A DNA stretch of 64,000 nucleotides from Rhynchopus sp. YZ270_cl-10. Taxonomy: Eukaryota. This document shows, piece after piece, positions 22,195 to 44,935 of the stretch. Both the position numbers and the translations under genes were made by a program. Position 1 is the stretch's first letter. Every line of letters starts with the position of its first letter. The notes below the pieces were generated by a model. That model was not told the DNA's origin and made no database searches. It worked only from the letters and a program-made list of their open reading frames with translations. Location: positions 1,860,001-1,924,000 of the forward strand of contig OZ037837.1 of the NCBI GenBank assembly GCA_964035575.1. The letters are read 5' to 3'.

Positions 22195-23310
22195 CAGTGC
22201 TGTCGCTGAGTTTTGAAAAAAAATTTAATAGGGAGGGCCCTGGTAGGGCAGGCCAAAAAAAACCCGCAAAAAAAGGTCCCGAGCTTTCCCCCCGTAAAAG
22301 CGGTCGCTGCGCGCGCTTCGCGCGCGCGACTCCCTGCCAGTGCAAGAAGGTGAGGCTCTTTCTCCCCTCTGATGCACAAAATCGTGAAAGGCGGGGGAGG
22401 GTGAACCACAAGCCGTAGTTGGTGTCAGCTGTCGTATCAGTAACCTCAGTAGATCTATAAAAGAACCACGGCAACCACGGTATTTCTAGGGGATGGCTAG
22501 CTACCATGAACCCCTGTCCAAAGTATTAATATTTCTCGAAAATTCTCTAAGTACACAGAAAACACACGGGTGTGCCCCAAAACACATTTTTTCCAGTGTC
22601 CCGCAGTGTCCCACCACTTTTTTTCGCTTTTTGTGGGAAAAAAAATACAAAAAAAAAATACATGGTTCTGTAGGGGCCGAGTACAATGGCGTTTTTCACG
22701 TGATTTTCATGATTTTTCAAAGTGGCCAAATATCATGTAAAATACTGCCTCCCACCCAACATTCTCTCCACAACGTCGTTCTGACACCCATATGTCCAAA
22801 CAAAAGATGTCTTTATATATATTTTTTCCACACCCAGCGTATCATAAAAATGCACATATCCACCAAAATCCACTAACCCACCGCAGGCAAATTTCTTAAC
22901 GATGTGTACTTCTGAATTGATACTGAGGGATTATGCGGCAACCGCTGCGTAGTTCTTTGGGGTAAAACGCCACCTGGGGTCACAAGGCCCAGGCTCCTAC
23001 CTTTACAGGTAGGAGAGCTGTTGAGTGACCCATCGGACAATCGTTTGAGGGGTCTTGGTGAAGAATTTCGAAAATTGATAAAAACGAATAAGCGTCTCAC
23101 AATTGAACCCAGATTCTGCTCCAGATATGATGTTTTGATGTGTTTCTGCCTGAATTGTGTGAGGGGGCCCGATTTTGTTGCGATAAATTACGAAAATTGA
23201 TTATAACCAATAAGCGTCTCACAATTGAACCCAGATTCTGCTCCAGAAGACAGGAGGCTTTGGTGAGGGATAAGTACATCCTCATCTGTTCGTACGCGAA
23301 TCCGACCAGC

Positions 23311-26265
23311 ATGACGGGAGACCCGAAGAGGAGAGAAGGGGACTACTTCGCAGGCGTTCGCGAAGAGGACCGGTCAACAAGGGATGGGTGTCTGCGATAC
23401 CGTCTGCACTCCTCGCAACACGGCACCGTCGGGTATCGCGACGTCGAGGGGAGGTTCCCCCATTCGGTAATGTACGTTGCGAGGGAGAAAAAGACGCCAG
23501 AAGAACCTGTGCGGAAACAGCCGGTCAAGAATTTGAAGAAACCCGGATTTATTCAGCAGTTCAACACCTCGCAGGCTAAGCAGCAGCAGAAGGACAAGGT
23601 CGAGAACAGGAAGCGCGAAGAAGAGGTGGCCGAAACGGCACGCAAGTACTCTTCGCAAGTTGCGCAGCTCCCGTACCGGTTTCTCTTCCCCTCAACTTTG
23701 CACGAAGAGTGCGGCGAAGGACGCAACAAGCAGTTGCTGGAAGAGCACCGACTGGCGGATCCTGTGACACAGGAAGGTGCGTGGGCGTGCCTCAACTGGG
23801 TGCGCCAGTCGGTGACCTCGTGCGGAGAGCCGAACAGGAAGATGACGAGGTTTTCCTGGGAGCAAATGCTGCACTTTCAGCAAATTGCGACCTTGCGGAG
23901 CAAAGCGGTGTGGAACGAAGACCCGAAGGAACTGAGCCTGCACTGGAGAGGTCTGTTTGACGTGGCTTGCGTGAGGCACGCAGTGGCATCCTTGTTTCCT
24001 GACTGGATATGCTCCTCCATACCGCTTCATCGGGAGGAGGGGAACCAGCAGGCGACATTGTGCAAAGATGCGCACCTGCACGACACGGTCCGCGCCCTCA
24101 TGTTTGAGAGAGACGGGCATTGGGTGGTGGTTTTGGTTGTGTCGTATTCCCCAGAGATCGACCTCGGGGACCCAAACACTGAGACGACCGGATTTGTGGT
24201 GAAGGACACGGACAGGGCTGAGAAGCGTTTCGGCCTGTTGGACGACGCCATCGACCACGCCACCAGAGGGCAACCATTTTCCTGGGAAGCTCCGCTGGTA
24301 CTTGCCGTGAAGCGGGGAAACTTCAAGGGAAGGTTCCACACTGCTGCCACCCTGCAGGTGTACGCCATCCGGAAGGTGAACCGCAGAGTGACGGACGCTG
24401 TGCTGGCGGATGAGGCACGTGCTTGGGCAGCCCGTTGCTTGGAGACGTTGACGGAGACGCTGAATGCAGAGATTCAGCACGTGATGAATGCGGCACGTGA
24501 GGCTGTGAGTATCCGTGTTGATGAACTTCGGGACTACCTGTGGCAGCGGAGGCGAACGCCGCACGTTGTGTCTTCCTTGTGTGACTTGGTGCGCAGGGGC
24601 ATGGGTAGTGCTGTGCAGTGTGCGAAGCTGCGCGGTGGCAGCGACACAGTCCTGAGGAATTTGCTGGAGGACACAGTGGGTGCTACGAACGAACGCACGA
24701 ACGACATGTCTGAGTCTGAAGATGACCGATCAGGAGCGGTGAGCTGCGAATTGTTCCCTGTGTCGGAGCCACCACCAGCAGCACCAGCAGCACCAGCAGC
24801 ACCAGCAGCACCAGCAGCACCAGCAGCACCAGCAGCACCAGCAGCACCAGCAGCACCAGCAGCACCAGCAGCACCAGCAGCACCAGCAGCACCAGCAGCA
24901 CCAGCAGCACCAGCAGCACCAGAAGCAGCAGCAGCACCACCACCAGTACCAGCAGAAAGTCCGAGGAAGCGGAGGAGAGCTGGGACTGATGCATCCCAGA
25001 ATGTTGTAAAGAAGCGTAAGCCTGCACCGAAGAACGGTCAGCAGCAACAGAAGCAGCAGCCACCACAGAAGAAACAGAAGCCACAGAAGCCACAGCAGCC
25101 ACAACAGCCACAGCAGAAGCCACAGCAACCACAGCAGCCACAACAGCCACAGCAGAAGCCACAGCAACCACAGCAGCCACAACAGCCACAGCAGAAGCCA
25201 CAGCAACCACAGCAGCAGCAGAACCCACACCAGCCAGGCGTTGGGGAGGCGGAGGAGATGGAGCAATTGCAGGCTGCCCTTGATGCAAGCCTGGAGCCTC
25301 CACCAGTGCCGAGGGGGTTCCATAACTTCGGCGTGACGTGTTTCATCAACTCTGTTTTACAGTGTTTAGTGTACACGGACTCGTTTGTGAAGTCCCTCTC
25401 GAATGCTGGCCCTTTTTCGAGGGCGATACGCGAAGTGGTGGCTCAGTCAGTGGCTGCGGATGCACAAGATGTGATCCGCCCTACGAGCATACGCGACGCA
25501 TTAAATGCGAAGGAGCCTGGGTTCACAGATACGCAGCAAGACTGCCACGAGTTTTTTCTTGTGCTGACGGACGCCCTCGAGGTGGAGGCAAGACGTGGGA
25601 AAGTTAAACATCCCACCAACGAAGTGCTGGATCATGAGACTTTGTCTGTGGCCTCGGCACGAGTAGCGAACTCTTACCTCGAGAGTTCTAATTGTCCAGC
25701 AATGGGTTTTCTTTATCTACAGTATGTCCAGACATCCACTTGTTTTGGCTGTGACACTAAGCGCCCCACCGTCACCCCCTCATTCAATTTTGTATTGCAC
25801 TTCCCCACGCGGGACACCGGTACATTGCCAGTGGCATTGGGTGCGTTACTTCAGCACCTCTTTAGGGTGGAAGAAATGCACGCAGAGCAGGAGTACAAGT
25901 GCCTGACCTGCCACCCGCAGACCTTCGCAGCCAGAATGGTGACACGTGTGATGCGGCTGCCAAATGTTTTGGCACTGCAATTGGCGAGGTTTCACGACCC
26001 GCTCAATAAGATCGAGACGATCGTTGAACTTCCGCATGAGTTGGACATGGCACCATACGTGCACTCTGACTCTCTAGAGGTGCAACTTCGGTATGACCTG
26101 TATGGTGTTGTCTGTCACCACGGACACAACCTGGGGCACGGCCACTACAGTGCATACGTGAAGTCAGAGGGTACGTGGTATCATTGCAATGATTCAAGTG
26201 TGACAAAGAACCCGAGGCTTCTCTTTTCAGAGGCATACCTTCTTTTTTATCATCGTCGGGGGTGA
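23311..26265 (+). CDS. Ubiquitin-specific protease (peptidase C19) with long N-terminal region, ~984 aa from the first ATG (frame open from 23140)
   Basis: Cys box GFHNFGVTCFINSVLQCL, QQDCHEF, two CxxC pairs (CFGC, CLTC), LPNVLALQLARF, His box YDLYGVVCHHG..GHGHYSAYVK..WYHCNDSSV and terminal AYLLFY. Basic NLS-like PRKRRR and KKRKP. Confidence 0.93.
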   Translation: MTGDPKRREGDYFAGVREEDRSTRDGCLRYRLHSSQHGTVGYRDVEGRFPHSVMYVAREKKTPEEPVRKQPVKNLKKPGFIQQFNTSQAKQQQKDKVENRKREEEVAETARKYSSQVAQLPYRFLFPSTLHEECGEGRNKQLLEEHRLADPVTQEGAWACLNWVRQSVTSCGEPNRKMTRFSWEQMLHFQQIATLRSKAVWNEDPKELSLHWRGLFDVACVRHAVASLFPDWICSSIPLHREEGNQQATLCKDAHLHDTVRALMFERDGHWVVVLVVSYSPEIDLGDPNTETTGFVVKDTDRAEKRFGLLDDAIDHATRGQPFSWEAPLVLAVKRGNFKGRFHTAATLQVYAIRKVNRRVTDAVLADEARAWAARCLETLTETLNAEIQHVMNAAREAVSIRVDELRDYLWQRRRTPHVVSSLCDLVRRGMGSAVQCAKLRGGSDTVLRNLLEDTVGATNERTNDMSESEDDRSGAVSCELFPVSEPPPAAPAAPAAPAAPAAPAAPAAPAAPAAPAAPAAPAAPAAPAAPAAPAAPEAAAAPPPVPAESPRKRRRAGTDASQNVVKKRKPAPKNGQQQQKQQPPQKKQKPQKPQQPQQPQQKPQQPQQPQQPQQKPQQPQQPQQPQQKPQQPQQQQNPHQPGVGEAEEMEQLQAALDASLEPPPVPRGFHNFGVTCFINSVLQCLVYTDSFVKSLSNAGPFSRAIREVVAQSVAADAQDVIRPTSIRDALNAKEPGFTDTQQDCHEFFLVLTDALEVEARRGKVKHPTNEVLDHETLSVASARVANSYLESSNCPAMGFLYLQYVQTSTCFGCDTKRPTVTPSFNFVLHFPTRDTGTLPVALGALLQHLFRVEEMHAEQEYKCLTCHPQTFAARMVTRVMRLPNVLALQLARFHDPLNKIETIVELPHELDMAPYVHSDSLEVQLRYDLYGVVCHHGHNLGHGHYSAYVKSEGTWYHCNDSSVTKNPRLLFSEAYLLFYHRRG
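24775..25230 (+). repeat. Coding low-complexity linkers in USP: (PAA)n and Q/P/K repeats
   Basis: (CCAGCAGCA)n at ~24775-24921 and CAGCCACAG-type repeats at ~25038-25230. Confidence 0.9.
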
Positions 26266-29200
26266 TTCTTTTTGGTGCATCGAGACGTTATGTGTTCTTT
26301 ATAAGATTGTCTGATGGAGGCAGTATCGGCGACAGTGGGGGAAATAGAGGGGGGTATGAGTTCAGAGAGACTGGGGTTATTGTCTCAGGACCGAGTCAGG
26401 TAGTTGAACTTCATCCTTTTTTAAATAGTGTGGATCTTTGCAGTCGTCGGTTATGTCTGAAAATTCTTAAGTCCACTTTGTGAGGGCCTTTTATTAACAT
26501 TAAAGGCCACCAGACCTGACGCTAAACAGTTACGAAAATCGCACTTTTTGGGCTTGGAATTCGGGTTTTTTTACGGGTTTTTTTACACGGGAAAAAGGTA
26601 CATTTTTCGACCCTGGTCCATGTCTGGTGGTGAAAATCATAATTTTTTTTGCCCACATGATACGTTTCGAACACACTTATCGCTAAATATGCCGTTTTCC
26701 CCGAAAATTTTGAGAACCCCACGTCCAATTTCTTTCGTTTTTGGTGCTCCGGGAGGGGTCGATATTGACAGGTCGCTGACAGGTCGCTGACACAGGGACT
26801 CTATACACACACCCCCTGATATTGACAGGTCGTTGACCGACTTCCGAAAGCACCAGTTTTGGAAAAAAAAATTCCGCGCTGCGCGCGAAAAAGGTCCTCA
26901 GAAGCTCAATTCCGAAAGCAAATACGGGGAGCGAAGTCTTCCAACTCCTCCGCCATCAGCAGGAACACCTCCGTTTTCTCTTGAACCTGTTACGCTTGTG
27001 CTGAGAAACAAGGCAACAGCGAGTTCAAGAATATTCCCCATCTTTTCGTTGTTAAACTCGGTGCCTGTTCATGAAGAACCATCAGCTTCTCAATAGTGCT
27101 GTGAGAAAGGCGGTGGCGTCTCTTTGCGTAGATGTAGTCAGGAGAGAGAATCCTTGTTCAACAGCAACCAAAGACGGGGAGTGCACTACCGGTGCAGCCT
27201 CCAAAACCCGTGCGAGAGTGTCCCCATTTTCCAAGAAAACTTCGAGAAAACCGCGTTCTGCCACGGTACGCCACATTTCAAAATCGCGCTTAAAATTGCA
27301 CTTTTTTCGCAGCCAAACTGTGTCATAAGAAGGGTGTAATGCAAGCTTGCGCCGCAGGCGCACGGTACGCTACTTTTTTCTTTGGCCATATCCTTCTTTC
27401 TCACTCCTTATTGGGTTCGACGTGTTCCGTCCGTCAAATGGTGGGGTCACAACATGCAGCAAAGTTTGCAACTACGCAAACTGCCCCCACGTTCACTTTG
27501 TACTTTTCCTTCAGAAGACAAGTACCATCGGGACCATACGGAACTGAATTTTTTTTTGCGAAGCAAAAAAAAAATATATATAAAATGGCGCCGCAGGCGA
27601 AAAAATAATAAAACCTACATTCTCGAACTTTTCTACTGACGTGATTTTCATTGGACGCATCCCCTTCTCCAATTCAATTCAATAAAACTGTAGCTTTCTC
27701 CTCAGAATTCGTGAAACAACCCGCGCCAAGTCTGCTGAGTCATACAACCCGCGCCAAGGCTGCTGAGTCGGATGACAAAGAGTGAGGGCGAAGCACCACA
27801 CGTATGAGCCCAAATGCTGCGCTTGTATGCTGTATGCAAGTCGTATCCTAAACAGTAAAAAACAAAGGTGTGTAGGTTAGTTGCCAACAGTACGTCCCTC
27901 GACGGTACTGTGCGTAAAACCGGCCCAAGGGTACTATGACGCATACATATAAGCATAACATGCGACGAGCGCTAGGCCCAACGTGCATAACCAGTAACAA
28001 ACAGAGGGACGCATCTGCGTGCTTACTTTCTTACTTTCTTTCTTTCCTTTTTTTTTTTTTTTTTTTTTGAAAAACGAGAAACGCTAATTGTATTTTTGGC
28101 CCCCTCTGTGAGTATTGATTGAATTGGAGTCGGGGAGCACAAGCAAAGGGCAATGAAAGGAAAACAATGAACATTAAACAAGCTAGAAAAGAGACAGTAT
28201 ATATTTCCGAACACACACACACACACACACTATTCAAATCATTCAATCCGAAAGAGCCCAATCATTTCGGTTTGTATTATTTCCTTACAAACCGTACGCG
28301 TACCGCTTCGTATGTTTGTATACAAAAATAATAAAACCTACATTCTCGAACTTTTCTACTGACGTGATTTTCATTGGACGCATCCTCCAGGACCCTAAGG
28401 ACCCCGAGGGACGCTGCGCGAACAAAAACCCCAAAACATGGTATAAAAAATTGAAATTGCACCCTACCTTTCCTTTTTATGTATTTCCCCACCCCCGCAA
28501 AGAATAAAGCAATAAAAACAATAAAGACAAAGGAGAGAGGTTGTGGCGAAACGCACACACCTCTACCTGTCGGTGCAATGTGGCCCTACTCCAACCCGAA
28601 AAGTGGAAGAGGATGGGAGTAGGGGTACGGTATTCAACTTCCTTACAGTCTTGCATGTAATCATAAAAGGTAATCTGGCCACAGTACGACAATAAGAACC
28701 GGACAGAAGAACAGAACCAAAATAAGAGAATAGGCATTGTAATATGAAGTGCCTTTCGTGCACCTACATCCTTTGAGGTGGCTTGCAGTCCAAGGTCCGC
28801 TCGTGGGAGTGTGGTTATGTTTGTGACTGGTGTATCAGCGGATCCCACCCCTGCAGGCCCACATCTACTACGAGTTCTCCAAGGACTATGAACTACAACC
28901 CACGGAGAAACTGAAACTGCATTCCTACCTTTCCCTTATTGTATTATCCCACCCCCGCAATCACGAAAACTAAAGGCAAAATGGAGAGGCTGTGGTAGAA
29001 TGCACACCTCGGCCTATCGGTGAGATGTGTCTCTACGTCAAACCGCCTCAGAATAGAAACAGGGAGGGATTAAGGGCACAGTTCAATATACTATTTGCAT
29101 AGTCGGGAAACGTAAACAGAATTCAACATATGCATTGAAATGATAGCGTGAAATGGATGAGAAAACGGGCTGGACCATTTGAATCCAGGTACCGTAATAG

Positions 29201-30502
29201 TAAAAACACCTAATACACAAAACATGTGGAACGCAACACAATTTGGAAAAGACGCGATGGTGAACAAACAACCCACGCAGTGCACTGTTGGCGTAACCCT
29301 CAACAAAGGTTCGTCAGTCTCAGCAAACCCCCCACAGTGGGCACGAGGCACCACAGCAACGAGGTAGCATCAACCCTACGTGTTTGTCACTCAAACTGCA
29401 TACGTCTTGGAAAAGAAGTAAGATAGATAACAAGTGCGAAGTGCGCACTAAACCCCTCACCCTCGAATATTTCGTTCTCGTCTTCCTGGCTCGCCAAAGG
29501 AATCTGTCGCTAGGCCAGGCTCCACAACATCAGTACTTCGACGACCAAATGCAATGAGCAACTGTTGCAGGACCACCGATCACTCTCTTCATCCTCGACA
29601 GTGCGTAGCTGTGTGTCAACTAAGAAGCTGCGCGCAGGCCTCAGTGTTGTTCTAAACGGGTACGCAACAGCCGTAGCCTGACAGCACTGCTCAGCTGAGG
29701 AAGTCTTCGGACGGAAGGCACGGCAGAACAGGCTCATGGGGTAGAACACTACGGTGGTCTAGAGAAGATGATGCTGAATGTACTGTGCATGATGACGGCC
29801 GATGAGTAGGAGCAGGAAGGGCGTAGAGAGCTAGAAAACGCTACACTAAAATCGACCATAATCGGGGACATCGTCATCGGCAGTGCCTACTGCGAGACCC
29901 CACCGCGGACATATACTAGCGATGAGGAGCACTCTGTGAGGTAACATCCTGGATAAGACCCTCAACACCAAAGGGGATATGTTAGAGAGCTTGACAGCAG
30001 TCCTATGCTGGTCCACTTCCACGGACGGAAACATTAACACGGTCTGCTCAGCTCCCCAGCATGCCTTGAGCACATGTTCGATACTGCTGACGCACACTGG
30101 TGCATTCTTGCCGATCAGGGAGAACTGCATCAGTCACTGCGCGAGCGCGTAGCCGAGATCACACTCTCAGCGTGCGGTAACCAGAGGTACTGCGCCGTTT
30201 GCCGAGCGTGAGACCGCATCTGGACCTGCTACAGCAGCTGGAACCGCGTCGTCTGCGGCGTCTGAGCAGGCGCAGTCCGGAACTGCGGCGACGACTGAAC
30301 ATGTGACCGCGGAAACAGCGCTGAGCGTGCGGCTTCTAACTGGCACTGTACCGCTATGCGCCGTAGACCTACACCTGTGTACTATAATGCTGCGGCAATA
30401 ACCAGACGCAACGGAGTCAAAGTGGGTGGCAAAAGTGCGCCAAACGGTCGCAGTTACGCAGAGAATAATTGCAGTGCGCATCAAGAAAATGAGAATACTT
30501 AA

Positions 30503-30916
30503 CCTATCCACTACCACCTTTACATATATGTAAAGGTTAATCGGCACTAGCCTCCAAGACATTAAAAACTGGTCAAAAGTGGAAATTTTTTTTTTTAATG
30601 GCTTCCGGGAGGTTGAAATGTGTGATTCCCCTATTTTTTTTTTTTGGATTTTTTAGAATTTGATTTTTGATTTTTTCCGCCACCCACAACACGCACATCA
30701 AGGAAAATGCGTGAAACAGGGGGGGACGGGTCACAGCCGAACAAATGCGATTTTTCGATTTTGATTCTCAGAACCGCAGAAGTCCCCGAAGACCATACCA
30801 AACCACCTAGAGGACCCAAAAAATGCACCATCGACCCGGTTTTGACCCAGAAACACTCAGATGATTCCAAAAAAATAAACGGGAAAAAAACCCCACACCC
30901 CCTGGTAGTGGATAGG
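30503..30916. mobile_element. piggyBac-like MITE, 414 bp
   Basis: TTAA at 30499-30502 and 30917-30920. Perfect 14-bp TIR CCTATCCACTACCA. Confidence 0.9.
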
Positions 30917-31439
30917 TTAATATTTCTCTTTAATTGTGATCCCCCGCCCCCACCCCCGTAGATAGTAAGCAATAAGGACAAAGACAATAATACAATCAGA
31001 CATATAAGGACAATAAGGAGCGTAGTAGTGAGACGCCCACAACGCGACCAGTCGGTAAAAAGGGACTGGGATGGTGTTCTATTCCCTCTTAAGCGTCGCA
31101 CGCAACCATACATCGAAGTTGTGCGTAACGGTGTGTGTAAAAATGGGACATACAGTGCGTCAACATGCTACTTTGGCGCTGCGCATACAGCTGAGGCTGC
31201 GGCTGGACTTGTGCTGCGCACTCAGATGAAGCAGCGGCCGTCATTAGAGAAGGGTACACCACCGCAAACCGCCTTCAGTCGACACTGAGCTAAAAACGCT
31301 ACGCCAAAAAATAATAGGCGTAACGGGGTGAAATGTGAGGCAACAGTGCACCCAACGGTCGCCTCTGTGCGCAAAGAAACTATAGTGCACTGCAAACAAA
31401 TGTGCACCTGTGTGTTACAAAGGAAGCAACAGTGTGACG

Positions 31440-32721
31440 TCAAGCAGAAAACGGTGTGTCGGCCTTGTTGCTGCGCTGCCTACAGAAGCTGCATTTACTG
31501 CGCTGCCTGCAGAAGCTGCTGCTGCTGTTGTTGTTGCGCCGCCTGGATGGGGGCGGCTGGTCTAGCTGCTGTGCTGCCTGCAGAAGCTGCGGCTGGACTT
31601 GTGCGGCTTGGCTCCACAGCTGGGCGACGTCCCGGATGACGTTTTGTAGGGCCAGCTGCGGAGCCAAGAGTTGCTGCAGGAGCGGCCCGAACGCATCAGG
31701 CTGGGGCATGGCTGGCGCTAGCTGAGGAACCCCCTGCTGCTGAGCCGCGCCCGGGGCCGGCGGCTGGGCTTGCTGGGCAGGAGGGGGTTGTTGGGCCGGT
31801 AGGGCCAGGAGCTGCGCGATCAGCTGCGCCGGCTGCTGCTGCTGCTGCTGCTGCGGACCCGGCTGGGTGGCCGCGTGAGGCCCGAGTAGCTGCGATGGCC
31901 TGCGCGAGACCCTGGGCCGGAAGCTGCGCCATCTGCGGAGGCGGCTGCTGATTCGGCTGTCCTAGCAGCTGCGCCGGGAGTACAGGCGGCTGCGGATGCT
32001 GCGCCACGTGCCCTAACTGCTGCTGGTTTTGATGTACGGGATGCTGCGCCGGGAGCACAGGCGGCTGCGGATGCTGCGCCACGTGCCCTGGCTGCTGCTG
32101 GTTTTGATGTACGGGATGCTGCGCCGGGTGCACAGGCGGCTGCGGTTGCTGCGCCACGTGCCCTGGCTGCTGCTGGTTCTTATGTACGGGATGCTGCGCC
32201 GGGAACACAGGCGGCTGCGGATGCTGCGCCACGTGCAACGGCGGCTGCTGTTCCTGCGGTACGGGTAGCTACGGTGGCGGCTGGTTCTGCCGCTGTGCGA
32301 TGAGCTGTGCGATGAGCTGTGCAATGAGCTGTGCCAACTGAGGCTGCGGCTGGTCCTGAGGCGGACCCCCCTGCGGAACAGGCGCAGGATCCTGGTGTAG
32401 TGGCGGCTGAGGCAGGATCGCATCCTGGTCTACAGCGGCCGGCTCCTCGTCCACCCAGGCGCATACAGGGCAAGTAAACTCAGTGGTGTGATAATTGACG
32501 AGAAAAGCGGCGGCGATGGCTTGCGTGGGGAGCTTATCCTTGACACACTGGTGATGGGCGCCGTATCCGCAGATCCAGCAATACTGCGTGTTATGTGCGA
32601 CGGGGCCTGAGGGGAAGACACAACCATGCTGAAGGAGAGCGGGCTGCGCCGGAGTAGGCAAGGGTCTAGCGCTCACCCAATCCACCTCATCCAAACAATG
32701 TGTCTCTAGATCTGCCCTCAA
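31440..32721 (-). pseudogene. Disrupted ORF1/Gag-like gene of SDR2: PHD-like Cys/His finger followed by Q/P-rich repeats
   Basis: C..CWICGYGAHHQC..FTCPVC pattern. One in-frame TAG at 32269-71 separates it from the same-frame 31696-32238 ORF, which has 75-bp (25-aa) HVAQHPQPPV repeats. A frameshift follows. It lies directly behind the 5' A repeat. The Gag identity is inference from position. Confidence 0.5.
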
Positions 32722-33362
32722 ACGGCATTTTTTTTTTTTTTTTTTTTCAGGATTTTTCAGGATTTTTTCAGGATTTTCCCAGGATTTTCAAATCTTTTCT
32801 CTTTTTTTTTTTTTTTTTTTTTGAAAAACGAGAAACGCTAATTGTATTTTTGGCCCCCTCTGTGAGTATTGATTGAATTGGAGTCGGGGAGCACAAGCAA
32901 AGGGCAATGAAAGGAAAACAATGAACATTAAACAAGCTAGAAAAGAGACAGTATATATTTCCGAACACACACACACACACACACTATTCAAATCATTCAA
33001 TCCGAAAGAGCCCAATCATTTCGGTTTGTATTATTTCCTTACAAACCGTACGCGTAACGCTTCGTATGTTTGTATACAAAAAATTAGGGTACGGTGTAAA
33101 AATATAGCTATTTACACCACAGAGCAGTCACTCAACGAACCCTTTTTGCGGAGCAAAAAATGAAAACTGGCGCCGCAGGCAAAAAAAAAAAATTGAAGGT
33201 ACAGCCTCCCGGGTCAACCCTACAGAATTTTCCCGTAAAAAAAGACTCCTCAAAATTTCCCGGAAAAAAAAGGATTTTCCCACGTAAAATTTCCCGTAAA
33301 AAAAACGACCTCTCAAGGATTTTGGAATTCCACTACGCGGTTTAGCAACATCCCTGAAGGCC

Positions 33363-33396: not shown

Positions 33397-33443
33397 CACG
33401 AATTGTTTCCAGGGTTTTATATAGGAATTTTTTCCTTACCAAA

Positions 33444-34282
33444 CAGGGGCAAAAACTGAGGTTTCATTTTTTCTCACCCACCCACCCAAAATCAAAGCGC
33501 GGAAAATTACTACCCCAACGGCCCTAAAAAATTGATGCTACCCACACGTAACGTAAAGTCGAAGACATCCTTCACATAATGGAAAGGGATAATCCGATTC
33601 CCAACGAACTGCCGGACAATCTCCTAGGGGAGATCATCCAAGAATGTGTGTCACGAAAGAATCGTGCACTCGAAACTCACCTATGGTGACGATGATCTGT
33701 GACAGTCGCCTATCTAGATCGACTAGAAAAGCTCCATAAAGATTTTTTTATTCAGGAGCAGGGGCTTATATAGCGTCACCCAAAGGTTCCTGGCGAAGCC
33801 ACGGTACGCAACATTTTTAAAAAATGTTGACATAAAATGGCACTGACGTTAGTAATTATCGTCAGTTTCCGTAAATTTTACTTAGGTATTTTGCTAAAAC
33901 GAAAGTTTCTGGCGAAGCCACGGTACGCAACATTTCAAAAAAATTCCCTTAAAATTGCACATATTTACAACCAAACTATGTCATGGGAGGGTGGTTGCAA
34001 TCTTGCGCCGCAGGCGCACGGTACGCTACTTTTTATTTCGCCATGCTGTATGCTTCCTTTTGCCACCGGGCCGTCCTTCCATTTGCCCGGGCTGTGGTTT
34101 CTTCGGTACGTATTTCTTTGGCATTTTGTGTTTTTTTCCTGCTGTGGCGGGTTCCTACGTCACGAGTCGTGTTCTAAGCCAGTAAAACGCCGAAAAAAAA
34201 AATTTTTTTTTTAAGGTCCGAAAAGGGGAATTTTTTTTTTTTTTTTCAATAACTGAGGATTGCCCTCAGTTCTGACCCCCTA
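33444..34282. mobile_element. Possible older hAT-like MITE
   Basis: CAGGGGCAAAAACTGAGG versus reverse-complement TAGGGGGTCAGAACTGAGG. Contains the shared hairpin cassette. No TSD found. Confidence 0.35.
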
Positions 34283-34935
34283 TATAAAAGTCTGATTGTT
34301 TCTCTCTCGCCTTGTCTTCATTTCAAGTTATGCCACACCCCTCTCAGCAGCCTGCTGATCAGAGTAAATGTTAAAGTATCAGCCTTTCTAGGTGTTCTTG
34401 AGTGAACAATGCAAGCATCCTCTCCAAAGCTTTTCTGTTGCGATTCTTTCTATTCCGATTTAGCCTTTTCACAAGTTGTGTAATATTTGCAAGCACTCTG
34501 TTTTGTCAGTTTCTCTTCCTTCTTCGACCAACAAAGATACCACACCACCCCAGACCCTTTTCAATTTTTCATTTCCTCTATTCTTCCCATCCAAGCCCTC
34601 CCCACACAATTCTGTTCCAGATGTAAATCTTGCCGTAATTTAACCATTTCTGTAATCTGTGTTCGTGCCGCAGGCGCAAGCGGCACTTGAAACATTTGAA
34701 ACAACATTGTATTGTGCTAATTGGTCGCCACCTGAAGTATCCGTAATTGAACTAGTTATCAAATCTGTGGTCAGTCTCATGGACGAATCATTGAATGCTG
34801 CATGCGCTGCCGACAATTGAAACGTTTGAAACAATATTGTATTGTACCAATTCACGCGAGAGCCCCCAACCCCAAAATTCTGGGAGGAAAAAAAGGGGGA
34901 AACAAAAAAAAAAAAAAAAAAAAAAAAAAAGGGAG

Positions 34936-35946
34936 CAGGCCTGGGCCTAAAGTGGGTGCCCGGGGCCCGATTTTGATTTTATTTTATTTTTTCTAAGGAT
35001 TTTACACGGGGGAAAAATTATTTTTTCTAAGGATTTTATACGGGGAAAATTTATTTTTCTAAGGGTTTTTCTTAGGGGAAAAAGTCTGGGGGGTCGGGCC
35101 GGGCCCCGTGTGGCTGAGAATAACTCGCACTCTGCCCGCCAGAGTGCGGTACCAAGCCATAATGAACAAAAAAAGTCTCCACCCCGCTTCCTTCGGTCTC
35201 GTCCCTTTCACCTCCCGCACAACAGAATAAATAATAATACAGTATGGTGCGTGTGACTGCAAACGTCGAGGGAACCTTGCTTCTTGCAGTGCTACAAGTG
35301 CTCGCCACCACGGTGGTAGCAAAGTGCATTGCGTTGGCGCACTTGGGCAGGCCCTGACGGCACTGAGGAACGAAAAAGAAAAATAATTCAGCGCCTCCCA
35401 GGTCTGCACCTTTAAAAAAAATTTGCCTGCGGCGCCATTTTCCCTTTTTTGCTCTGCAAAAAAGGATTCGCTGAGTGGCTTTGTGGTATAAAAGCGGCAT
35501 TTTTTATACTGTACCCTAATTTTTTTTCGCCTGCGGCGCCGTTTTATATTCATCCCGAACATTCGGGGTGCACGTAGCGCGTAGCGCGCCCGGGTTTAGG
35601 ACCCCTTCTTGAATTTCGAGGGGGCGGTTCACGTTACAGTGGGTCCAGAATCATAGTTCAATTTAACCCCGCTAAGCAACTCGCTGGTGGTAATGACCAA
35701 AACGTGTATCAGCCAAGAACTTGCCCATTTTTTTCAAAATGACCCCGTGACAGTGAGGGTAAAAGCTCGGAAAACCCGAAAAAGGCCAAAAAAAACCCCC
35801 CGAAAAGGGAAAACCGAGAACATATTTCGGCAGGGGGCAGCGTGTTCTCAGAAAAATCCAAAAATTGCCTGTAAAAATCCTTAGAAAAAACCTGGGTGCC
35901 CGATCCAAAAAAATGGAAAAAACCCCAGGGTGCCCGCCCACCCCTG
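34936..35946. mobile_element. hAT-like MITE, 1011 bp
   Basis: 8-bp TSD AAAGGGAG at 34928-34935 and 35947-35954. TIR CAGGCCTGGGC / CAGGGGTGGGC. Confidence 0.85.
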
Positions 35947-37409
35947 AAAGGGAGATACTGGGGGGGAGCTATTAAAGTATACGTATACTTTATTCGGCGG
36001 GAATTACTGCTTAAATGGCCAAAAAACGAAAAAGGAAAAAAAAAAAAAAAACACTGTTATTTTGGGGTTTCTAGTGGCCGAAACCTCGCGAAAACACCAC
36101 CATTGGCATTTTTGGGCCAATCCCAGCCAGTGGTGGGGTCAATGTGGAAAAATGAACAATTTTTTGGTGACTTAAATTTTCACAAATCTGAACCCCATCA
36201 GCACCAATCGTGTAAAAACTGATACACGCGTTTTAGGTCAAAAATACTCGTTTCTCAGCGCAAAGTGACCCCATCACAGCACGCACAGAATCCGGACCAC
36301 CGAAATCAAAAAAAAATACTACGGTGTCAATAACTATCTTCGCCCACACAGGAAAACGGGAAACGAAACAGGGGGAGAGTTTGTTAGTTGTACGCTTCCA
36401 CCCTTCCACACACACTCAGGACTGTTGTAATGCTCTTTTTGGTATCTTTTTTTTTTTTTTTTTTTTTTTTTTTGAAAACTGAATGTTTACAAAAACAGAG
36501 CCAAATAGAAAAGGTAAGAAAATGAAAGTCCTGAAGTACAGAAAGTGATGTGTGAGAAGGGAGGAGCACAAGTGAGGGTGAAAACAGTTAGAGCGACCGT
36601 AGCATTTCCCCTGTCAACTGCGTTTGACCTATAAAAATACTACGGTGTCAATAACTATCTTCGCCCACACAGGAAAACGGGAAACGAAACAGGGGGAGAG
36701 TTTGTTAGTTGTACGCTTCCACCCTTCCACACACACTCAGGACTGTTGTAATGCTCTTTTTGGTATCTTTTTTTTTTTTTTTTTTTTTTTTTTTGAAAAC
36801 TGAATGTTTACAAAAACAGAGCCAAATAGAAAAGGTAAGAAAATGAAAGTCCTGAAGTACAGAAAGTGATGTGTGAGAAGGGAGGAGCACAAGTGAGGGT
36901 GAAAACAGTTAGAGCGACCGTAGCATTTCCCCTGTCAACTGCGTTTGACCTATAAAAATACTACGGTGTCAATAACTATCTTCGCCCACACAGGAAAACG
37001 GGAAACGAAACAGGGGGAGAGTTTGTTAGTTGTACGCTTCCACCCAGGACCCTATGGGACGCGGTAGCGCAGAAAAAAAGAATGCCCCAACCACTCCCCA
37101 GCCTTTAAAACAGAGAAAATTATTCGTCCAAAACTACAGCCTCCTGAGCGTTCGTGCCTCGTGTGTATTCGTCTGCCTCTTGCATCGGAATGTTAACGTA
37201 GACACTTCTGATCCGTATGTACTTGTTTCTGGCGACGTCGAATCGTGCAAGCAGCAGGTGTGCCTGGTAACACGTTAAGTGACCCGCGTTAATATAATGC
37301 ACTGCCGCCAGGTTGTCGTGCAGGTTGACAGATTTGGTTAATTAACCGCAGTCGGAGCTAATGAGCTAAGGCGCTAATGAGCGAAGGAGCTAAAGAGCTA
37401 AGGCGCCAA

Positions 37410-37630
37410 GGAGCTAAGGAGCTAAGGAGCTAAGGAGCTAAGGAGCTAAGGAGCTAAGGAGCTAAGGAGCTAAGGAGCTAAGGAGCTAAGGAGCTAAGGA
37501 GCTAAGGAGCTAAGGAGCTAAGGAGCTAAGGAGCTAAGGAGCTAAGGAGCTAAGGAGCTAAGGAGCTAAGGAGCTAAGGAGCTAAGGAGCTAAGGAGCTA
37601 AGGAGCTAAGGAGCTAAGGAGCTAAGGAGC
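37410..37630. repeat. (GGAGCTAA)n microsatellite, ~27 copies
   Basis: Directly visible. Confidence 0.97.
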
Positions 37631-38629
37631 GTGGCAGCGGTTACTAACCGTGGTCGTCATGGGACCTTCACGAAGGATGAGGGCGCATGTGTCTACTTGC
37701 AGGGAAGCCAGAACCGCAGATAACCTTGTTGCGTATACCTCCTTGACGAAAATATGTATGTTCATAACAACATCAAGTGGTTAATGAACGAGCCTTGCAG
37801 GCAGCAGGTATGTCTGGTAACACGTTGAGAAACCCCTGTAAATACAATGCATTGCCGCCAGGTAGTCGGGCAAGCTGGCAGGTTGATAGATTTGGTTAAT
37901 TAACCGTAGTCGGAGCTAATGAGCTAAAGAGCTAATGAGCGTAGCAGATTGGTTAATAAACCGTGGTCGTAATGGCACCCTAGTAAATCTAATGTCTTCG
38001 TACACGGCCTTGCATACGAAGGCAGCACCGTGCTGTCTCCAGGAGACTCTACTCTTATGTGCATTGCTCCTTTCTGTTGTGGTGCCTGCGTTGTTAAGGT
38101 TCTGCGATTGGCTTTGCGGGCGTGCGCCTATTCATGACAACTACATTTGTAGGGTACAGCGTGTACAACGTCAGGTCACGCAGAACTGGATCCTCCTCTT
38201 GACAGCGCTCTCCTTCGCAAGCAACCCTACCTGGGCGACGTTGCCCCTACGCGTGGTGCAAGAGTGTAGCAGATTGGTTAATAAACCGTGGTCGTGGCAC
38301 CCACACGAAGGGTGAGGGTGCATGTGTCTACGTACAGGGAAGGCAGAAACGCAGATTTCTTTGTTGCGTATACCTCCTTTACGAAAATGTGTGTGCCTGG
38401 GTCGCACGCACCTTGTGAATCTCGGTCTGGGGAATCCATCCAGAAGAGCCGTCCATACGGAACCAGCGGAAGTGGTGACTGCAAAAAACTGAAGTTTGAA
38501 TAAAATGGGTCTCAATGCCCAAGACAGCGAAGCGGTGACAGCAGAATACGTAAGATTGAACAACAGGCGCAATGGCCCAACACAGCGATGCGATTAATCG
38601 CAAAAAACGGAGGACCCGTGGCCCAAAAC

Positions 38630-39580
38630 AGCGAGAACGGTAATTGCGAAAACTCCCGTTGAGCACCTTCGTGAAGACCAGTGTGAGGGTGCCGTCTGCA
38701 GGGTAGTCAGCTTCGTAGACATCCCTGTGGTCGCCGAGGGAGTCGAGTTCGTAGCCTTGCGTGTTGCGCAGTGAGAGCATGTTCCTGTATGTCATCCTCA
38801 GCACTCCTGTGCACCTGATTGCCCAGCACTTCGAGGTGGTTGCTGAGGTGGTCGCGTCCATCACACCGGCGTATGACACAGACGTGCTCACTGGACAGCT
38901 CGTGGCAGGCGGCAGCGTCTCTGGTAGTGCTGTCGGGTACGTTTTGTGGGGCAGAACGTATACACCTTGTACACCGCCCATGCCTGTGTAGTCCGACATA
39001 TTCAACCGTGTGTCGTCCGTGTCGACCAGAGATAGTGTGCCAAGATGCCCGCGCACGGCAACACCCACCGGTACTTACCCGCCTCCCTCACGGAACGTGA
39101 CACTGTGTCGAAAGTAGAGTGCCACGCAGGCAGTGTGAGCTGAGTTCTCTTGGGGAAGGATGCGGCAGGCAAAAGGGTCATGCTCGCGTCTTTCGTGCAC
39201 GTCCAGCTCAGGTGGAAGGAGATCGGGAACACGTCAGCGTGAACTCCCCGTTTGCAAGGTATTTACGCACCAACGAGGCGCCTCCGTTTCGTCCCTAAAT
39301 GGCAGTGCGGGCAGTGCCCCAGTGCAGGCCCACGACATGGCAAACGGAAAGTCTGGAGACGTCTTCACCAAGAGATGCACCTCAAAGTCGCCTGACACAT
39401 CGTAGCGTGCAGTGAAGGTGCCCTGCTCTGATGTGGTGTGCACGCTGCCGTTGCTGTGCCCCAGCAGGCACATCTCGTTGCCCACAGCACTGCCAATGTC
39501 CACTGCAACGTCAAGCACACCTTGGCACGGTATCACCCAGCGATGTGCATCCTCCCAGTTGGCCATCCTGAAGTGCGCTC
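38630..39580 (-). pseudogene. Fragmented host-like coding sequence inside SDR3, possibly CUB-like extracellular domains
   Basis: GC-richer stretch with three consecutive broken minus-strand ORFs. NWEDAHRWVIPCQG and SKCWAIRCTGVLRMTY resemble W-x-I-x-C CUB-like motifs. Weak. Confidence 0.35.
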
Positions 39581-39587
39581 CTCATTC

Positions 39588-40331
39588 ATCTCGAACAGCA
39601 ATGGTTAATAAACCTCTTCCAAATCTCGAACAGCAATGGTTAATAAACCTCATTCATCTCGAACAGCAATGGTTAATAAACCTTTTCCAAATCTCGAACA
39701 GCAATGGTTAATAAACCTCTTCCAAATCTCGAACAGCAATGGTTAAATATACCTCATTCAGCTCAAACAGCAATGGTTAATAAACCTCATTCATCTCGAA
39801 CAGCAATGGTTAAATATACCTCATTCATCTCGAAACAGCAATGGTTAATAAACCTTTTCCAAATCTCGAACAGCAATGGTTAATAAACCTCTTCCAAATC
39901 TCGAACAGCAATGGTTAAATATACCTCATTCAGCTCAAACAGCAATGGTTAATAAACCTCATTCATCTCGAACAGCAATGGTTAAATATACCTCATTCAT
40001 CTCGAAACAGCAATGGTTAATAAACCTCTTCCAAATCTCGAACAGCAATGGTTAATAAACCTCTTCCAAATCTCGAACAGCAATGGTTAAATATACCTCA
40101 TTCAGCTCAAACAGCAATGGTTAATAAACCTCATTCATCTCGAACAGCAATGGTTAAATATACCTCATTCATCTCGAACAGCAATGGTTAATAAACCTCT
40201 TCCAAATCTCGAAACGCAATGGTTAAATATACCTCATTCAGCTCGAACAGCAATGGTTAATAAACCTCATCCATCTCGAACGGCAATGGTTAAATATACC
40301 TCATTCATCTCGAAACAGCAATGGTTAATAA
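39588..40331. repeat. 33-36 bp minisatellite, ~22 copies, with 172-bp 5-mer higher-order period
   Basis: Core CGAACAGCAATGGTTAA. The variant GCTCAAACAG recurs at 39761, 39933 and 40105. Confidence 0.93.
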
Positions 40332-40368
40332 ATGTGGCTTCCAATTTTTTTTTTTTTTTTGAAAACTG

Positions 40369-42138
40369 CAGGGCTTCCCGCAGGATCTGGGGGTTTGGCC
40401 TCCCAGGGGGACCAGCCAAAAAAAGGTGAAAAAAATTTTTTTTTCGCGCCTTCAGGGTTTCCGCCAGGATTTGGGGTTTCAGAAATTGGGGGGGACCATC
40501 AAAAAGACCCCCCAAAATTTTTTTTCTCCCCGCAATAGCGGTCGTCGCGCGCTTCGCTGCAGGCCACAGAGTGGAGAGGCGAAGGGTGTGACAACCGTGG
40601 GAGTCTCCTTCTTGACAGCAAAGACAAGTCTGCTCTGCCAGCTTTGGCACAACTTTTTTGCGCCAGGCTTTTTAGCACCAGGTTAGATAGCCGTGCTAAG
40701 CTTCACAGCTGCGTTGTCTGGTAGAGGTAGGTAAGGGGTCTTGTGAGAGTGGAGGGTGATGGTATTTGCTTTTTTCCTTGTATGGCGCCACACAGTGATT
40801 GCAGTGCTGCAGTTGGAACATGTAATGAAAGTGTATGTACTCGTCGCTTGCCGAAGCCTCCTTTTAAAAGGGGCAATGCTCGGAAGTATCAATGGTATCA
40901 ATAATATCAACATCAAAGAGCCAGCAACACAGCGCCGCAGGCGCACGGTACGCTACTTTTTTATTTTTTTAGAGTTCGCCATCCCCTTTTCTTCCACTCC
41001 TTTTGACACAGCGAGTCAAATGCTCTGCACGGTGGGGTCACATGACCACGGGGGGTCATCTACAACCTCCAAAACCCATTTTTCTTAGGGGGGACCATGG
41101 TACCCCCCAAACCCCTGTAAAAATCCGGATTTTTCTGGGAAAAATATTGGGGGGGACCATGGTCCCCCCCGGTCCCCCTTGGCGGAAACCCTGGCCTTGT
41201 TGTGTGTGGTGTGTAGCACTAACGCTGACGCTACGTTACGTTACGTTACGCGCCTCTACGCACTTTAAGTGGTCAAAAATCATTTTTTCGCCTCCGGCGA
41301 AAATGTCCCGGTAAACCGTTAAAACTGCTGCATTCACTCGCATATTGCATATCATCTCACGTTCCCCACCTTTGCGGGATAAGCAAAAAAATCATGTCAG
41401 GTCGGTAGCGTGCAGACGTTTCCTAGTATAGACATCTACAAAAAGAAACGACAGTCATGGCAAAGGTTCCTGGCGAAGCCACGGTACGCAACATTTTAAA
41501 AAAAAAATGTTGCGCACCGATCAAATGGCACTGTCGTTGGTCATTATCGTCAGTTCCCGTAAATGTTACTTCCATATTTTGCTGAACGAAAGTTTTTGGC
41601 GAAGCCACGGTACGCAACATTTCAAAATATTGTGCTTAAAATTGCACTATTTTACAGCCAAACTATGTCATGCGTGGCTTGCAATCTTGCGCCGCAGGCG
41701 CACGGTACGCTACTTTTTTCCTTTCGCCATGTTGCATGCTTCCTTTTCCTTCGGCGTTTGACCAATTGAGTCGCGTTCTGGCTGTGACGGGGTCACTTTG
41801 TTCATGAGGCATACTCGTGGTTCTTTGCAACCGTTATATTCTGCCTCTTCCTGAGCAGATAACTTGGGACTCCGCCGGTCGCTTTGCAAATTCCATTATG
41901 GAAAGCTGTCTTGGTCCAGAGGACTTTTTTGGTGCCATCCTTTCCCCCTGTTAGTTGCCTGTATTTGGATGCGCGGGGACGGGAGGGTAGGAAAAAATTT
42001 AAAAAATGTGGAAAATTCCTAATAGGCAGCTTCGGAACACTCAACGGCAGGCTGGTCCCCCCTGGTCCCCCCTTATTTTTTTTTTTTTCCCCCAGGGGGA
42101 CCAGTGGTCCCCCCTGGTCCCCCCTGTGGGAAGCCCTG
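40369..42138. mobile_element. CAGGG-ended MITE with 5-bp TSD (hAT-like ends), 1770 bp
   Basis: 16-bp TIR CAGGGCTTCCC(G/A)CAGG. AACTG duplicated at 40364-68 and 42139-43. Empty site GAAAACTGAATG at 36474 and 36795. Confidence 0.9.
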
Positions 42139-44935
42139 AACTGAATGTTTACAAAAACAGAGCCAAATAGAAAAGGTAAGAAAATGAAAGTCCTGAAGTA
42201 CAGAAAGTGATGTGTGAGAAGGGAGGAGCACAAGTGAGGGTGAAAACAGTTAGAGCGACCGTAGCATTTCCCCTGTCAACTGCGTTTGACCTATAAAAAA
42301 TTTTTCGATTTTTTGTGCAAAACTTGCTGAAAAATTTTTTTAGTAAGAAAAATGTACACAAAAACCGTATACTTTATTTCACAGATTTACACGCTCAAAA
42401 TGGGTTTCCGCACCGTATACTTTATTACCCCCGTATACTTTATTAGCACCGTATACTTTATTAGCCCCCCCCCAGTAGTCAGACTTACCCTACCCTATTT
42501 TGAAAAAGTTCAGACTTGCCCTATGAAAAAGTTCAGACTTGCCCGAAAATAAGTTCAGACTTGCCCTAAAAGTGTTTTTAGGGCAAGTCTGAACTTATTT
42601 TTAGGGCAAACACTTTTTTTAGGGCAAGTCTGAACTTTTTTAGGGCAAGTCTGAACTTTTTTAGGGCAAGTCTGAACTTTTTTAGGGCAAGTCTGAACTT
42701 ATTTTTAGGGTAAGTCTGAACTTATTTTAGGGCAACAAGTCAGGCCACTTTGGCTGGGGCACTCTTGGGGCCCCATGTGGTATGACTTGTTTTATTGCCC
42801 TAAAATGCCTAACCGAGCCGGAGCCCAAAAATTGATGCCAGAAACCACCAGCCACCCGGAAAGGGTGAACAGGCAGTCCACGTTGGGCCAGAACCGGTTA
42901 CAAAGGAAGCCGTGTTCTGGGGCAACGTGGGGCGCAAAGTTTTACAATTTTCATGCACGGGTGCTCCACAAATTACCAAGTATTCCTTCTTTGTTGAATT
43001 GAGAGAGAGTCAGTGTTTAGCTACCACGCGGGTTTGCTTAGAATCCTTCGAGGCCGGCACAATTTTATTTATGTGGTCGGTTAAGACATGCCTATTGAAG
43101 AACAACGAGGTCATCGTTGAAAGGAGCGAACTCCCCTTCCCACAACATCTCTCACATTTCAACTCAGAATTCATACTTGGTTATTTGCTTTGTCCATACG
43201 CAATCAAATTGTCATGCTTTCAAGAGCATGCCTGGCCAAAATGCAACAACGTAGAAAAATTGTTGTTGTTCCAAAAGGCAACAAGACCACCCACAAGGGG
43301 TTGAATTGTGCACTGTCCGGGGGAGCGCAAAGTTTTTTCCCTGTACACAGTGGACACATCTTTATCACTTTGTTCCCACGGGGACACATTTGGATACTGC
43401 ACGCATGCAGAAGTGCCAAACATGTCCGCACGTGGAGTGGAGTGTCCATCATGTTTTCCTGGTTTCCAAAAAGCAGTTTTCTTGCACTTACTATTTGCCC
43501 CGGTGTCTGGCAATAGAAGTGGCTAACATTGTAATGAGTAGCATATACATACCGTTGATCCAAATGAGTAAGGCGACCAACAAGTCCTCTGGACTTTTTT
43601 GTTGTGACGACAATCGCGGAGTAATCCCGGAGAATTACATCCTCGTATAAAAAGTTAAAGGTAGAGGTGGGGAAACTGTAGCTATAGAAATAGTTGTTGC
43701 AGTAGTGCAGACACCCGAGGGTGCACCACTATGCTTTTCTTTGGTTGTATCGACAATTTTACGTACATGATGTAGGACCTGTACAATGTCGCCCAAAGGC
43801 TTTGTACTTACTGCAGTAATCGGTATTTTTTTTTTGTTACTACTACGTCGTGTTCTATGAGGAGTCGCGTTTGGGTGCGGAAGTCTTTTTTCTGGTCTCT
43901 GTTCTGTACGGGTCTCGGATCGTGGTGCGGTACTGCGGTGCGGTACCTGAGAGTTTTTTAGAGTGATGATAAAGGTCAGAGGGTTTTCCCCTCCCATTTG
44001 TGTCATTATTTAATTTTGCTCGGAAAGTGGGGTGTCCTGGACACGAGGAAATTCAGTTGCATGGAAAAAAAGTTGCATACCATAGGTTGCTCATTTCACT
44101 ACCAGGACTCGTCGCGAATAGCCCATACGTGCCCTAAACAGAAACGCAAAAACGACGACCGCCGGGCTCTGTAACCCAAGAGCCCCCAGCTTGCCCAATA
44201 AATAAGTGCAGGGTTGCCCTAAAAAAGTTCAGACTTGCCCTAAAAAAGTTCAGACTTGCCCTAAAAAAAGTGTTTGCCCTAAAAATAAGTTCAGACTTGC
44301 CCGAAATAAGTTCAGACTTGCCCTAAAAACACTTTTAGGGCAAGTCTGAACTTATTTCGGGCAAGTCTGAACTTTTTCAAAATAGGGTAGGGTAAATCTG
44401 ACTATTTCCCAAAAAAAAAAAAAAAAATGCCGGAAAACGCCTAAGTACAAAATAATACTTTGGACAGCTTTTTGTGAAGGAATTACCCTAGCTATCCACC
44501 CCCTAGTATTTCTAAAAACGAAAGTTTCTGGCGAAGCCACGGTACGCAACATTTCAAAAATATAAATGCGCTTAAAATTGACCATTTTTTCAGCCAAACT
44601 ATGTCATGGGAAGGGTGCATTGCAAGCTTGCGCCGCAGGTGCACGGTACGCTACTTTTTTTTCTTCCGCCATGCTGCATGCTTCCTTTTCCTTCGGCGTT
44701 TGACCAATTGAGTCGCGTTCTGGTCTCCCACGGTTGATGAAACGATGAGAAAAAAATCGCCAAAAACTCGTAACGATGGTTAGCAAAATGCCTGCCGAAC
44801 CCCTCCTCAAAAAAATAAAATAAAATAAAAAATCCTGGTAGGGCAGGAGGGCGGACCTTGCCCTACCAGGAAAAAAAACCAAATTTAATAGGTATGGCGA
44901 ATGCCATACCAGCCTGATCAGGCACGACAGCACTG

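Follow-up and report, generated by a model that had tools for sequence, protein, structure and literature searches.

The window analysed here is a stretch of 64,000 nucleotides from the assembly of Rhynchopus sp. YZ270_cl-10 (GCA_964035575.1, contig OZ037837.1, positions 1,860,001 to 1,924,000 of the forward strand), and positions 22195-44935 of it (22,741 bases) are filled by a nest of 12 transposable elements, seven levels deep, that occupies a defunct piece of a cyclase gene. We conclude, with a probability of about 0.68, that these elements arrived stepwise, without a recognisable transposase of their own, and that they favoured the edges of A/T runs contributed by elements that had arrived before them. 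The element ends, their target site duplications (TSDs), the insertion order along each branch, the empty sites, the existence of separate multi-copy families and the absence of Pfam transposable element domains are all established.

Twelve elements nested seven levels deep

Paired ends accompanied by an insertion signature occur across the nest: nine exact TSD pairs, one element (E6) lying in an A run, and two split-direct-repeat (SDR) elements that have no TSD. Ten of the elements are small and bounded by terminal inverted repeats (TIRs) of at least five end types, and the remaining two are the SDR elements; there is no long terminal repeat (LTR) element and no long interspersed nuclear element (LINE). 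All but 64 of the 22,741 bases (22,677) belong to the elements themselves, and these 64 are TSD copies and the A run to the right of E6.

The outermost element, E1 (22195-44935), is a CAG-ended hAT-like miniature inverted-repeat transposable element (MITE) with 715 bp of own DNA, an 8-bp TSD (CTTGCAGT) and a TIR score of 11/17, scores being matches over the first 17 TIR bases. Within it lies E2 (22487-44505, + strand), a TAG-ended element (TAG...CTA) with about 4.8 kb of own DNA, a 7-bp TSD (GTATTTC) and a score of 15/17. E2 in turn received E3, E12 and E6, all at level 3. E3 (26511-33356) is a CAG-ended hAT-like MITE with 1.4 kb of own DNA, an 8-bp TSD (AAGGCCAC) and a score of 12/17, and it abuts a run of 32 T's. 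It holds, at level 4, SDR2 (27601-33082, − strand), whose split direct repeats A and B measure 287 and 62 bp and whose body is degraded coding sequence, rich in Cys and His in an N-terminal stretch. SDR2 holds E5 (30503-30916, level 5), which has a TIR score of 14/17 and fits the signature of a piggyBac MITE with its TTAA TSD and CC...GG TIRs. E12 (33410-34294), again a CAG-ended hAT-like MITE with an 8-bp TSD (ATTGTTTC; 14/17), lies 5 bp from the T32 run.

The second branch begins with E6 (34931-44410), a GGG-ended element with 226-bp TIRs built of 21-bp subunits. A runs of 27 and 17 flank it on its two sides and mask any TSD. On its left junction sits E7 (34936-35946, level 4), a CAG-ended hAT-like MITE with a score of 10/17, whose 8-bp TSD (AAAGGGAG) consists of three A's of the flank and the first five bases of E6; the right TSD copy rebuilds a functional E6 left end at 35950. 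Eight bases inside this left TIR lies E8 (35958-42475, level 4), a CTG-ended MITE with a TA TSD, a score of 15/17 and 532 bp of own DNA. E8 holds SDR3 (36312-42297, − strand, level 5), which has split direct repeats and no TSD and contains, in addition, a further B-A unit of 321 bp and tandem arrays of the 8-bp and 33-bp types. Inside one of the three A repeats of SDR3 is E10 (40369-42138, level 6; 1 kb of own DNA, TSD AACTG), and inside E10 is E11 (40453-41193, level 7; TSD GCCTT), both CAGGG-ended MITEs with 5-bp TSDs and scores of 15/17. At 36312-37045, the 321-bp B-spacer-A unit is exactly duplicated at the 3′ end of SDR3 (413 identical bases); the cause would be either a stutter of the assembly or a crossover in which the split repeats paired unequally.

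A permissive scan for TIR and TSD pairs over 22000-45100 returned 21 pairs, comprising eight of the elements, ten weak pairs with 5-bp TSDs and 11-12 of 17 TIR matches, which we read as chance, and three pairs inside inverted repeats. All four pairs with a TSD of at least 7 bp were elements, and E7 scored below the threshold of the scan. The initial annotation had described ten elements, six levels deep. All ten were recovered at their coordinates with the TSDs or ends it had named, and their order held, while the scan added E12 and E11 and thereby raised the count to 12 elements and seven levels. E7, which had been placed within the E6 branch, is present and moves to the left junction of E6. 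That several classes are represented is likewise supported, with superfamily names taken only from termini and TSD length because no transposase is present; these names are accordingly putative, and E6 is a candidate Mutator- or Merlin-like element.

Depth by itself does not set the nest apart. When 12 elements of the real lengths were inserted at random, weighted by length, at least seven levels were reached in 7.4% of 200,000 simulations (P = 0.074), and nesting over many levels is already well known. The present nest is an unusually clean example of it.

The CAG-ended elements E1, E3, E10, E11 and E12, which differ in TSD length, have in common an internal module of 130-290 bp that is 83-89% alike between copies (27260-27389, 33781-34061, 40932-40966, 41461-41781 and 44506-44723). 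Rfam gave no match in 20000-46000, so the module is no known RNA, and its summed depth is among the highest in the public sequencing runs described below. Its distribution suggests MITEs of mixed origin or a common functional signal.

A dead cyclase gene as target, empty sites and the age of the nest

The left flank of the nest (22106-22194, + strand), a remnant of 3′ coding sequence from a gene of the adenylate cyclase family, is identical to 4422-4510 and ends in the TSD CTTGCAGT. The right flank (44936-45380, + strand) begins with the other TSD copy and continues with the rest of the relic, matching 4503-4672 (99%) and 4854-5043 (179/190). When the two flanks are joined, they align with the coding 3′ part of a 743-codon cyclase gene (4422-4672) at 249 of 250 bases with one 1-base gap, and the paralogue at 4503 is an empty version of the E1 site, with 2 differences in 251 from the flanks. 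Of the solved relatives of the cyclase, two receptor cyclases of trypanosomes, GRESAG 4.1 and GRESAG 4.3, come closest (E 1e-20 and 3e-20; the next 1e-7). This match speaks for a euglenozoan host, and the gene family may be diplonemid-like.

Altogether, peeling out the elements restores five independent empty sites within the window. Removal of E10 leaves a site matching the other copy of the SDR3 A repeat at 180/180 bases, the empty junction of SDR2 matches a stretch of E7, and the empty site of E2 matches copies of the module common to E1, E3, E10, E11 and E12. Once E7 and E8 are removed, the left TIR of E6 is 87% identical to the right TIR over 226 bases.

These results bear out the earlier description of the target as a pseudogene relic amid intact genes, the frames at 18359-20161 and 45931-47721 being open. 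Intact TSDs had been taken to imply recent activity. Recent activity is supported, albeit better by other evidence: the elements were recognised through perfect TSDs, which amount to 55 duplicated bases overall, whereas the SDR3 repeats are identical at 180/180 bases, the SDR2 repeats show 2 differences in 287 columns and the flanks match their paralogue at all but 2 of 251 bases.

The relic belongs to a family of tandem membrane-protein genes (2796-5027, 15041-16828, 18359-20161 and 45931-47721) that is interrupted by blocks of repeats. One member has a class III cyclase domain; for the other three, the single one searched gave no Pfam match. Behind each short gene of the family lies a remnant of the 3′ end of the long gene, and the mosaic identities among these relics suggest conversion. 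The relic at the nest is itself mosaic relative to the gene (99%, then 94%).

Most TSD-making nested insertions lie beside A/T runs

Of the eight nested insertions that made a TSD, six are no more than 6 bp away from a stretch of at least 8 consecutive A's or T's (E3 0, E12 5, E7 0, E8 6, E10 3 and E11 3 bases), compared with about 5% of nest positions (p 4e-7). The 6-bp limit was picked after seeing the data; a 15-bp limit gives p 4e-6. Counting shared runs once, four of six insertions lie near a run (p 9e-5), and when the comparison is restricted to AT-rich positions (GC up to 0.35) the association still gives p 0.003. Outside the TSD-making set, E6 lies in an A run, and SDR2 and SDR3 are both at A cores. 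All three insertions into E2 fall within the 21% of that element that lies behind its stop codon. Among the regions compared, the runs themselves are confined to the nest: the nest holds 37 runs of at least 8, and there are none in 15041-20161 or 45931-64000, about 23 kb of gene-rich neighbouring DNA.

Together, these data lead us to propose the following sequence of events. All elements would have been moved in trans by enzymes presumably encoded elsewhere. E7 arrived after E6 had landed in the present A run, because the TSD of E7 holds A's of the flank together with the first five bases of E6. E8 splits the left TIR of E6, which likely pinned E6. E10 likely arrived after the integration of SDR3, because the A repeat that it occupies is one of three identical ones. 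Like VIPER and TATE, the SDR elements may have integrated through an exchange by a tyrosine recombinase at a short A/T core, which leaves no TSD. Each arrival would bring new A/T runs, and thus new targets, such that the nest feeds itself, while genes here, having no such runs, would be spared. Runs of poly(dA:dT) repel nucleosomes, and a study of Hermes reportedly found hAT insertion into nucleosome-free DNA.

A broader proposal is that several unrelated families target the edges of A/T runs, that such runs exist almost only in other transposons, that nests are consequently self-seeding sinks that keep insertions away from genes, and that an E2-type element spreads a ubiquitin-specific protease (USP). 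We offer this only tentatively and regard it as rather less probable than its negation.

An intact deubiquitinase is the sole recognised gene in the nest

Across 21 open reading frames (ORFs), of which 18 lie wholly or partly within the nest, and 45 read-through frames, 42 of them from the nest, Pfam recognised neither a transposase nor a recombinase or reverse transcriptase. For a hAT transposase in particular, there was no Pfam match in the read-through frames or in the N-terminal part of the E2 product, and SDR2 and SDR3 gave no Pfam match to gag, tyrosine recombinase (YR) or reverse transcriptase/RNase H (RT/RH) domains at E values up to 1. By eye, SDR2 has a PHD-like trace and a YR-like trace.

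The only recognised gene is an intact USP in E2. Its 984-codon ORF (23311-26265, + strand) encodes an N-terminal part, a linker rich in P, A and Q, and a C-terminal USP (UCH, peptidase C19) that matches the Pfam UCH family at E 2e-44 and 152 bits, with the Cys, His and Asp boxes intact in an alignment to USP2. Full-length matches of the USP are at most about 32% identical. The 480 N-terminal residues gave no match by word search, no PDB match at E up to 5, and an uninformative best score of 0.77 in the Atlas. Among 1.84 billion representatives, this region matched a single 61-residue fragment, P0241, a protein on a 1.6-Mb contig that is 59% identical to part of it and that may come from a related element in another assembly. 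A single-sequence AlphaFold model of 370 residues reached a pLDDT of 40, and to the eye the region has an Ulp1-like look.

In a comparison with sibling contigs, at least 18 codons of the USP were changed; of the 18 listed, 16 were changed non-synonymously, two synonymously and none to a stop. Against a neutral non-synonymous share of 0.74, this is no departure from neutrality (p 0.12). There is no sign of purifying selection, and positive selection is not proven. A hAT-like family with a 7-bp TSD may carry no gene but this intact deubiquitinase and spread it, perhaps to shield transposases or undo ubiquitin-based silencing.

Families differ in depth and occur without their cargo

Eight public sequencing runs in four studies, none on record as RNA, cover part of the stretch; five were compared, all as short contigs, over the sequence outside the arrays at 37350-40334 and the segment at 21500-24959 that holds the left ends of E1 and E2. 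As a single-copy reference we used the contig covering 48421-49034, which matched four runs (X1 to X4) at 0 differences with depths of 104.6, 350.8, 106.7 and 108.5. These four runs possibly include the window's own source and give no independent support.

Relative to the reference of the same run, a rough proxy in which summed depth is no copy number, single contigs of the E2 USP ORF had depths of 6.0, 9.2 and 9.8 (roughly 6-10 copies), the SDR2 body 1.0-2.3, the SDR3 body 2.6 (X2 only), the E6 body 40-94 and E11 18-52. E1 is a multi-copy family, of which the allele in the window, followed at 44757, has 0.96 (X2) and 0.86 (X4) of single-copy depth. Because depths differ by element, most E2 copies cannot carry SDR cargo.

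Forms free of cargo were also found. A joint without SDR2 is present in 4/4 runs and a joint without E11 in 2/4 (X2 and X4), and contigs of X1 and X2 end at 30498 and 30917, on both sides of E5, with tails outside the match, which we read as E5-free copies. A contig of a further run, X6, starts at 26511, the left end of E3, with 0 differences. Weaker joints at 42473-43696 (4/4 runs) and 42138-44670 (X2), with sides of fewer than 30 letters, hint at E8-, E10- and E11-type ends in other contexts and serve as leads only.

Weighing stepwise build-up against the alternatives

Several of our own results weigh against stepwise arrival at A/T runs. The post hoc limit of the run analysis and the roughness of depth as a proxy are among them. 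E2 and E5 lie 142 and 1807 bases from the nearest run of at least 8, and when the background is limited to the positions richest in A and T (GC up to 0.30), p rises to 0.058. Six TIR-type candidates, counting E1, do not occupy nested positions, and none of them comes within 6 bp of such a run; all but E1 have other end types. The run demonstrably predates the insertion for E7, E8, E10 and E11, and not for E3 and E12. The positions of E1, E2, E5 and the candidates outside the nest would fit a stepwise build-up without any target preference, in which elements land at random and survive only where they are harmless, in dead or repeat DNA; that the founder landed in a dispensable relic and that a depth of seven arises by random insertion at P = 0.074 also agree with it. 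However, selection of this kind leaves unexplained why six of eight insertions are found 6 bp or less from a run although 95% of the nest DNA, just as neutral, was open to them, or why two fell within 8 bp of the E6 tip, and we judge it improbable.

The initial annotation had left open whether the nest was built stepwise or moved here ready-made. The strongest competitor, which even so we hold to be unlikely, is that all or part of the nest came together at another place and that outer ends still intact (those of E1, or of E2, E3, E8 or E10 with their cargo) brought it in as a composite. All five of these elements have intact ends; the small hosts E8 (532 bp), E10 (1 kb) and E3 (1.4 kb) received insertions despite their small share of the nest; and the 2/251 differences between the flanks and the empty paralogue leave little time for the 11 insertions that followed. 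Set against those flanks, the 15 differences in 739 positions between E2 and its commonest sibling point the way a pre-built composite predicts, although not significantly (Fisher p 0.27), and the flanks may look young through gene conversion, given the mosaic relic. In X1, a stretch of SDR2 with 0 differences has 1.6-1.9-fold depth; a near-identical SDR2 twin therefore exists, and it could belong to a second E3-SDR2 composite. The window's E1 allele, close to single-copy in two of four runs, is 3.9-fold in X1 and was not seen in X3. Depths about 50-fold apart between elements, together with the cargo-free forms, speak against a composite: because the elements differ in depth, an amplified one is disfavoured, and a single last jump by the outer ends, which by cut-and-paste would leave one copy as observed, would still be compatible with the data. 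Misassembly of multi-copy repeats stitched together is by far the least probable account. No junction was bridged with 31 letters on each side among the 64 contig pieces listed (of more than 50,000), and the exact duplication of the SDR3 unit alone could be a stutter, yet mis-joins are not expected to yield nine exact TSD pairs in correct nesting order, at distances of up to 22.7 kb, nor paralogous empty sites on peeling, and the unique flanks match four runs at 0 differences. Stepwise arrival at the edges of A/T runs is therefore the reading we favour.

Other elements in the window

A third SDR element, SDR1 (5287-10307, + strand), has repeats A of 218 bp and B of 117 bp and a tandem array of the 44-bp type, and near 8010-8200 it has captured a fragment of EF-2/EF-G domain III (Pfam E 1.8e-9). 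An inverted 85% match to SDR2 28439-28668 lies at 769-1008 and is a fragment of the SDR2 family. Outside the nest, 150 bp to its left, is a 1855-bp CACC-ended TIR element (20189-22043) with a 2-bp TT duplication, EnSpm/CACTA-like by its ends. A second, smaller nest consists of an element at 11490-13172 (TTA duplication) inside another at 11383-13853 (CATTC). Long perfect 8- and 9-bp microsatellite arrays occur in TIR-bounded elements at 1448-1872, 11500-13050 and 14146-14780. The region 48800-64000 is gene-rich, has many internal repeats of about 500 bp that are 73-90% identical and no A/T run of at least 8, and probably encodes one or more large repeat proteins.

Significance and comparison with known systems

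With a readable order of 12 elements, the nest is a clean case for teaching and benchmarking, and it supplies seed ends of about ten families from a lineage in which DNA transposons have hardly been described. Two leads merit pursuit, namely the targeting of A/T runs and the USP-carrying element. If true genome-wide, such targeting would help to explain clean gene clusters beside blocks of repeats, which would then not be due to selection alone, and a TIR element carrying a USP alone would extend the list of ubiquitin-system cargo. In a literature search of partial coverage, without Repbase, we found no direct precedent for a TIR element carrying only a USP, for diplonemid MITEs of the hAT-like type or for nests in which insertions target A/T runs.

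The piggyBac signature is a TTAA TSD with CC...GG TIRs, to which E5 conforms, and the TTAA TSD is documented for that superfamily (PMC10512250). For Diplonema papillatum, TATE, MULE and Helitron ORFs are named, and a rigorous study of transposable elements is called for (PMC10161547); trypanosomatids are reported to be without DNA transposons (PMC12278014), and MITEs have been suggested as a source of diplonemid introns (PMC12621601). Nested clusters in plants likewise consist of elements within elements over multiple levels, ordered through TSDs and split hosts, with DNA transposons disabled by later arrivals (PMC11020628, PMC3903597). Unlike the present protist nest of ten TIR and two SDR elements, however, they are made mostly of LTR retrotransposons in large plant genomes (PMC11020628, PMC3903597).

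E1, E3, E7 and E12 resemble hAT elements in their short, imperfect CAG...CTG TIRs and 8-bp TSDs (PMC12730594). The superfamily also includes groups with 5-bp (hAT5) and 7-bp (hAT7) TSDs, which E10 and E11, and the TAG...CTA-ended E2, respectively resemble (PMC12730594). Unlike full hAT elements, no candidate in the nest has a transposase, and judging by ends and TSDs they would behave like hAT MITEs. E6, with long G-ended TIRs containing internal tandem subunits, is similar to Mutator-like and Merlin elements, the latter having 5′-GG ends and 8-9-bp TSDs and occurring in Euglena and kinetoplastids, although it too has no transposase (PMC8101967).

In carrying an extra enzyme gene, E2 is like fungal hAT7 families, with the difference that the hAT7 of rust fungi carries TET/JBP cargo where E2 carries a USP (PMC12730594). 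Peptidase-carrying DNA transposons share with E2 a ubiquitin-system cysteine peptidase as stable cargo, and UCH is cargo of the Helitron-like HLE2; unlike HLE2, E2 is bounded by TIRs, has a 7-bp TSD and contains no transposase (PMC11417382). The joints of SDR1, SDR2 and SDR3 lie at a short T/A core, and the three elements share the motif GCGTCCC...GGGTCCTG before B1. Ginger DNA transposons, for their part, reportedly carry Ulp1. The bodies of the three SDR elements consist of decayed ORFs, tandem arrays and, in SDR1, the EF-2-like fragment. In their A1...B1-A2-B2 repeats of similar size and identity, and in having no TSD, they are like VIPER, TATE and SIRE; unlike VIPER and TATE, they have no detectable YR or RT/RH, measure 4-5.5 kb and have unrelated bodies (PMC6681497, PMC12278014).

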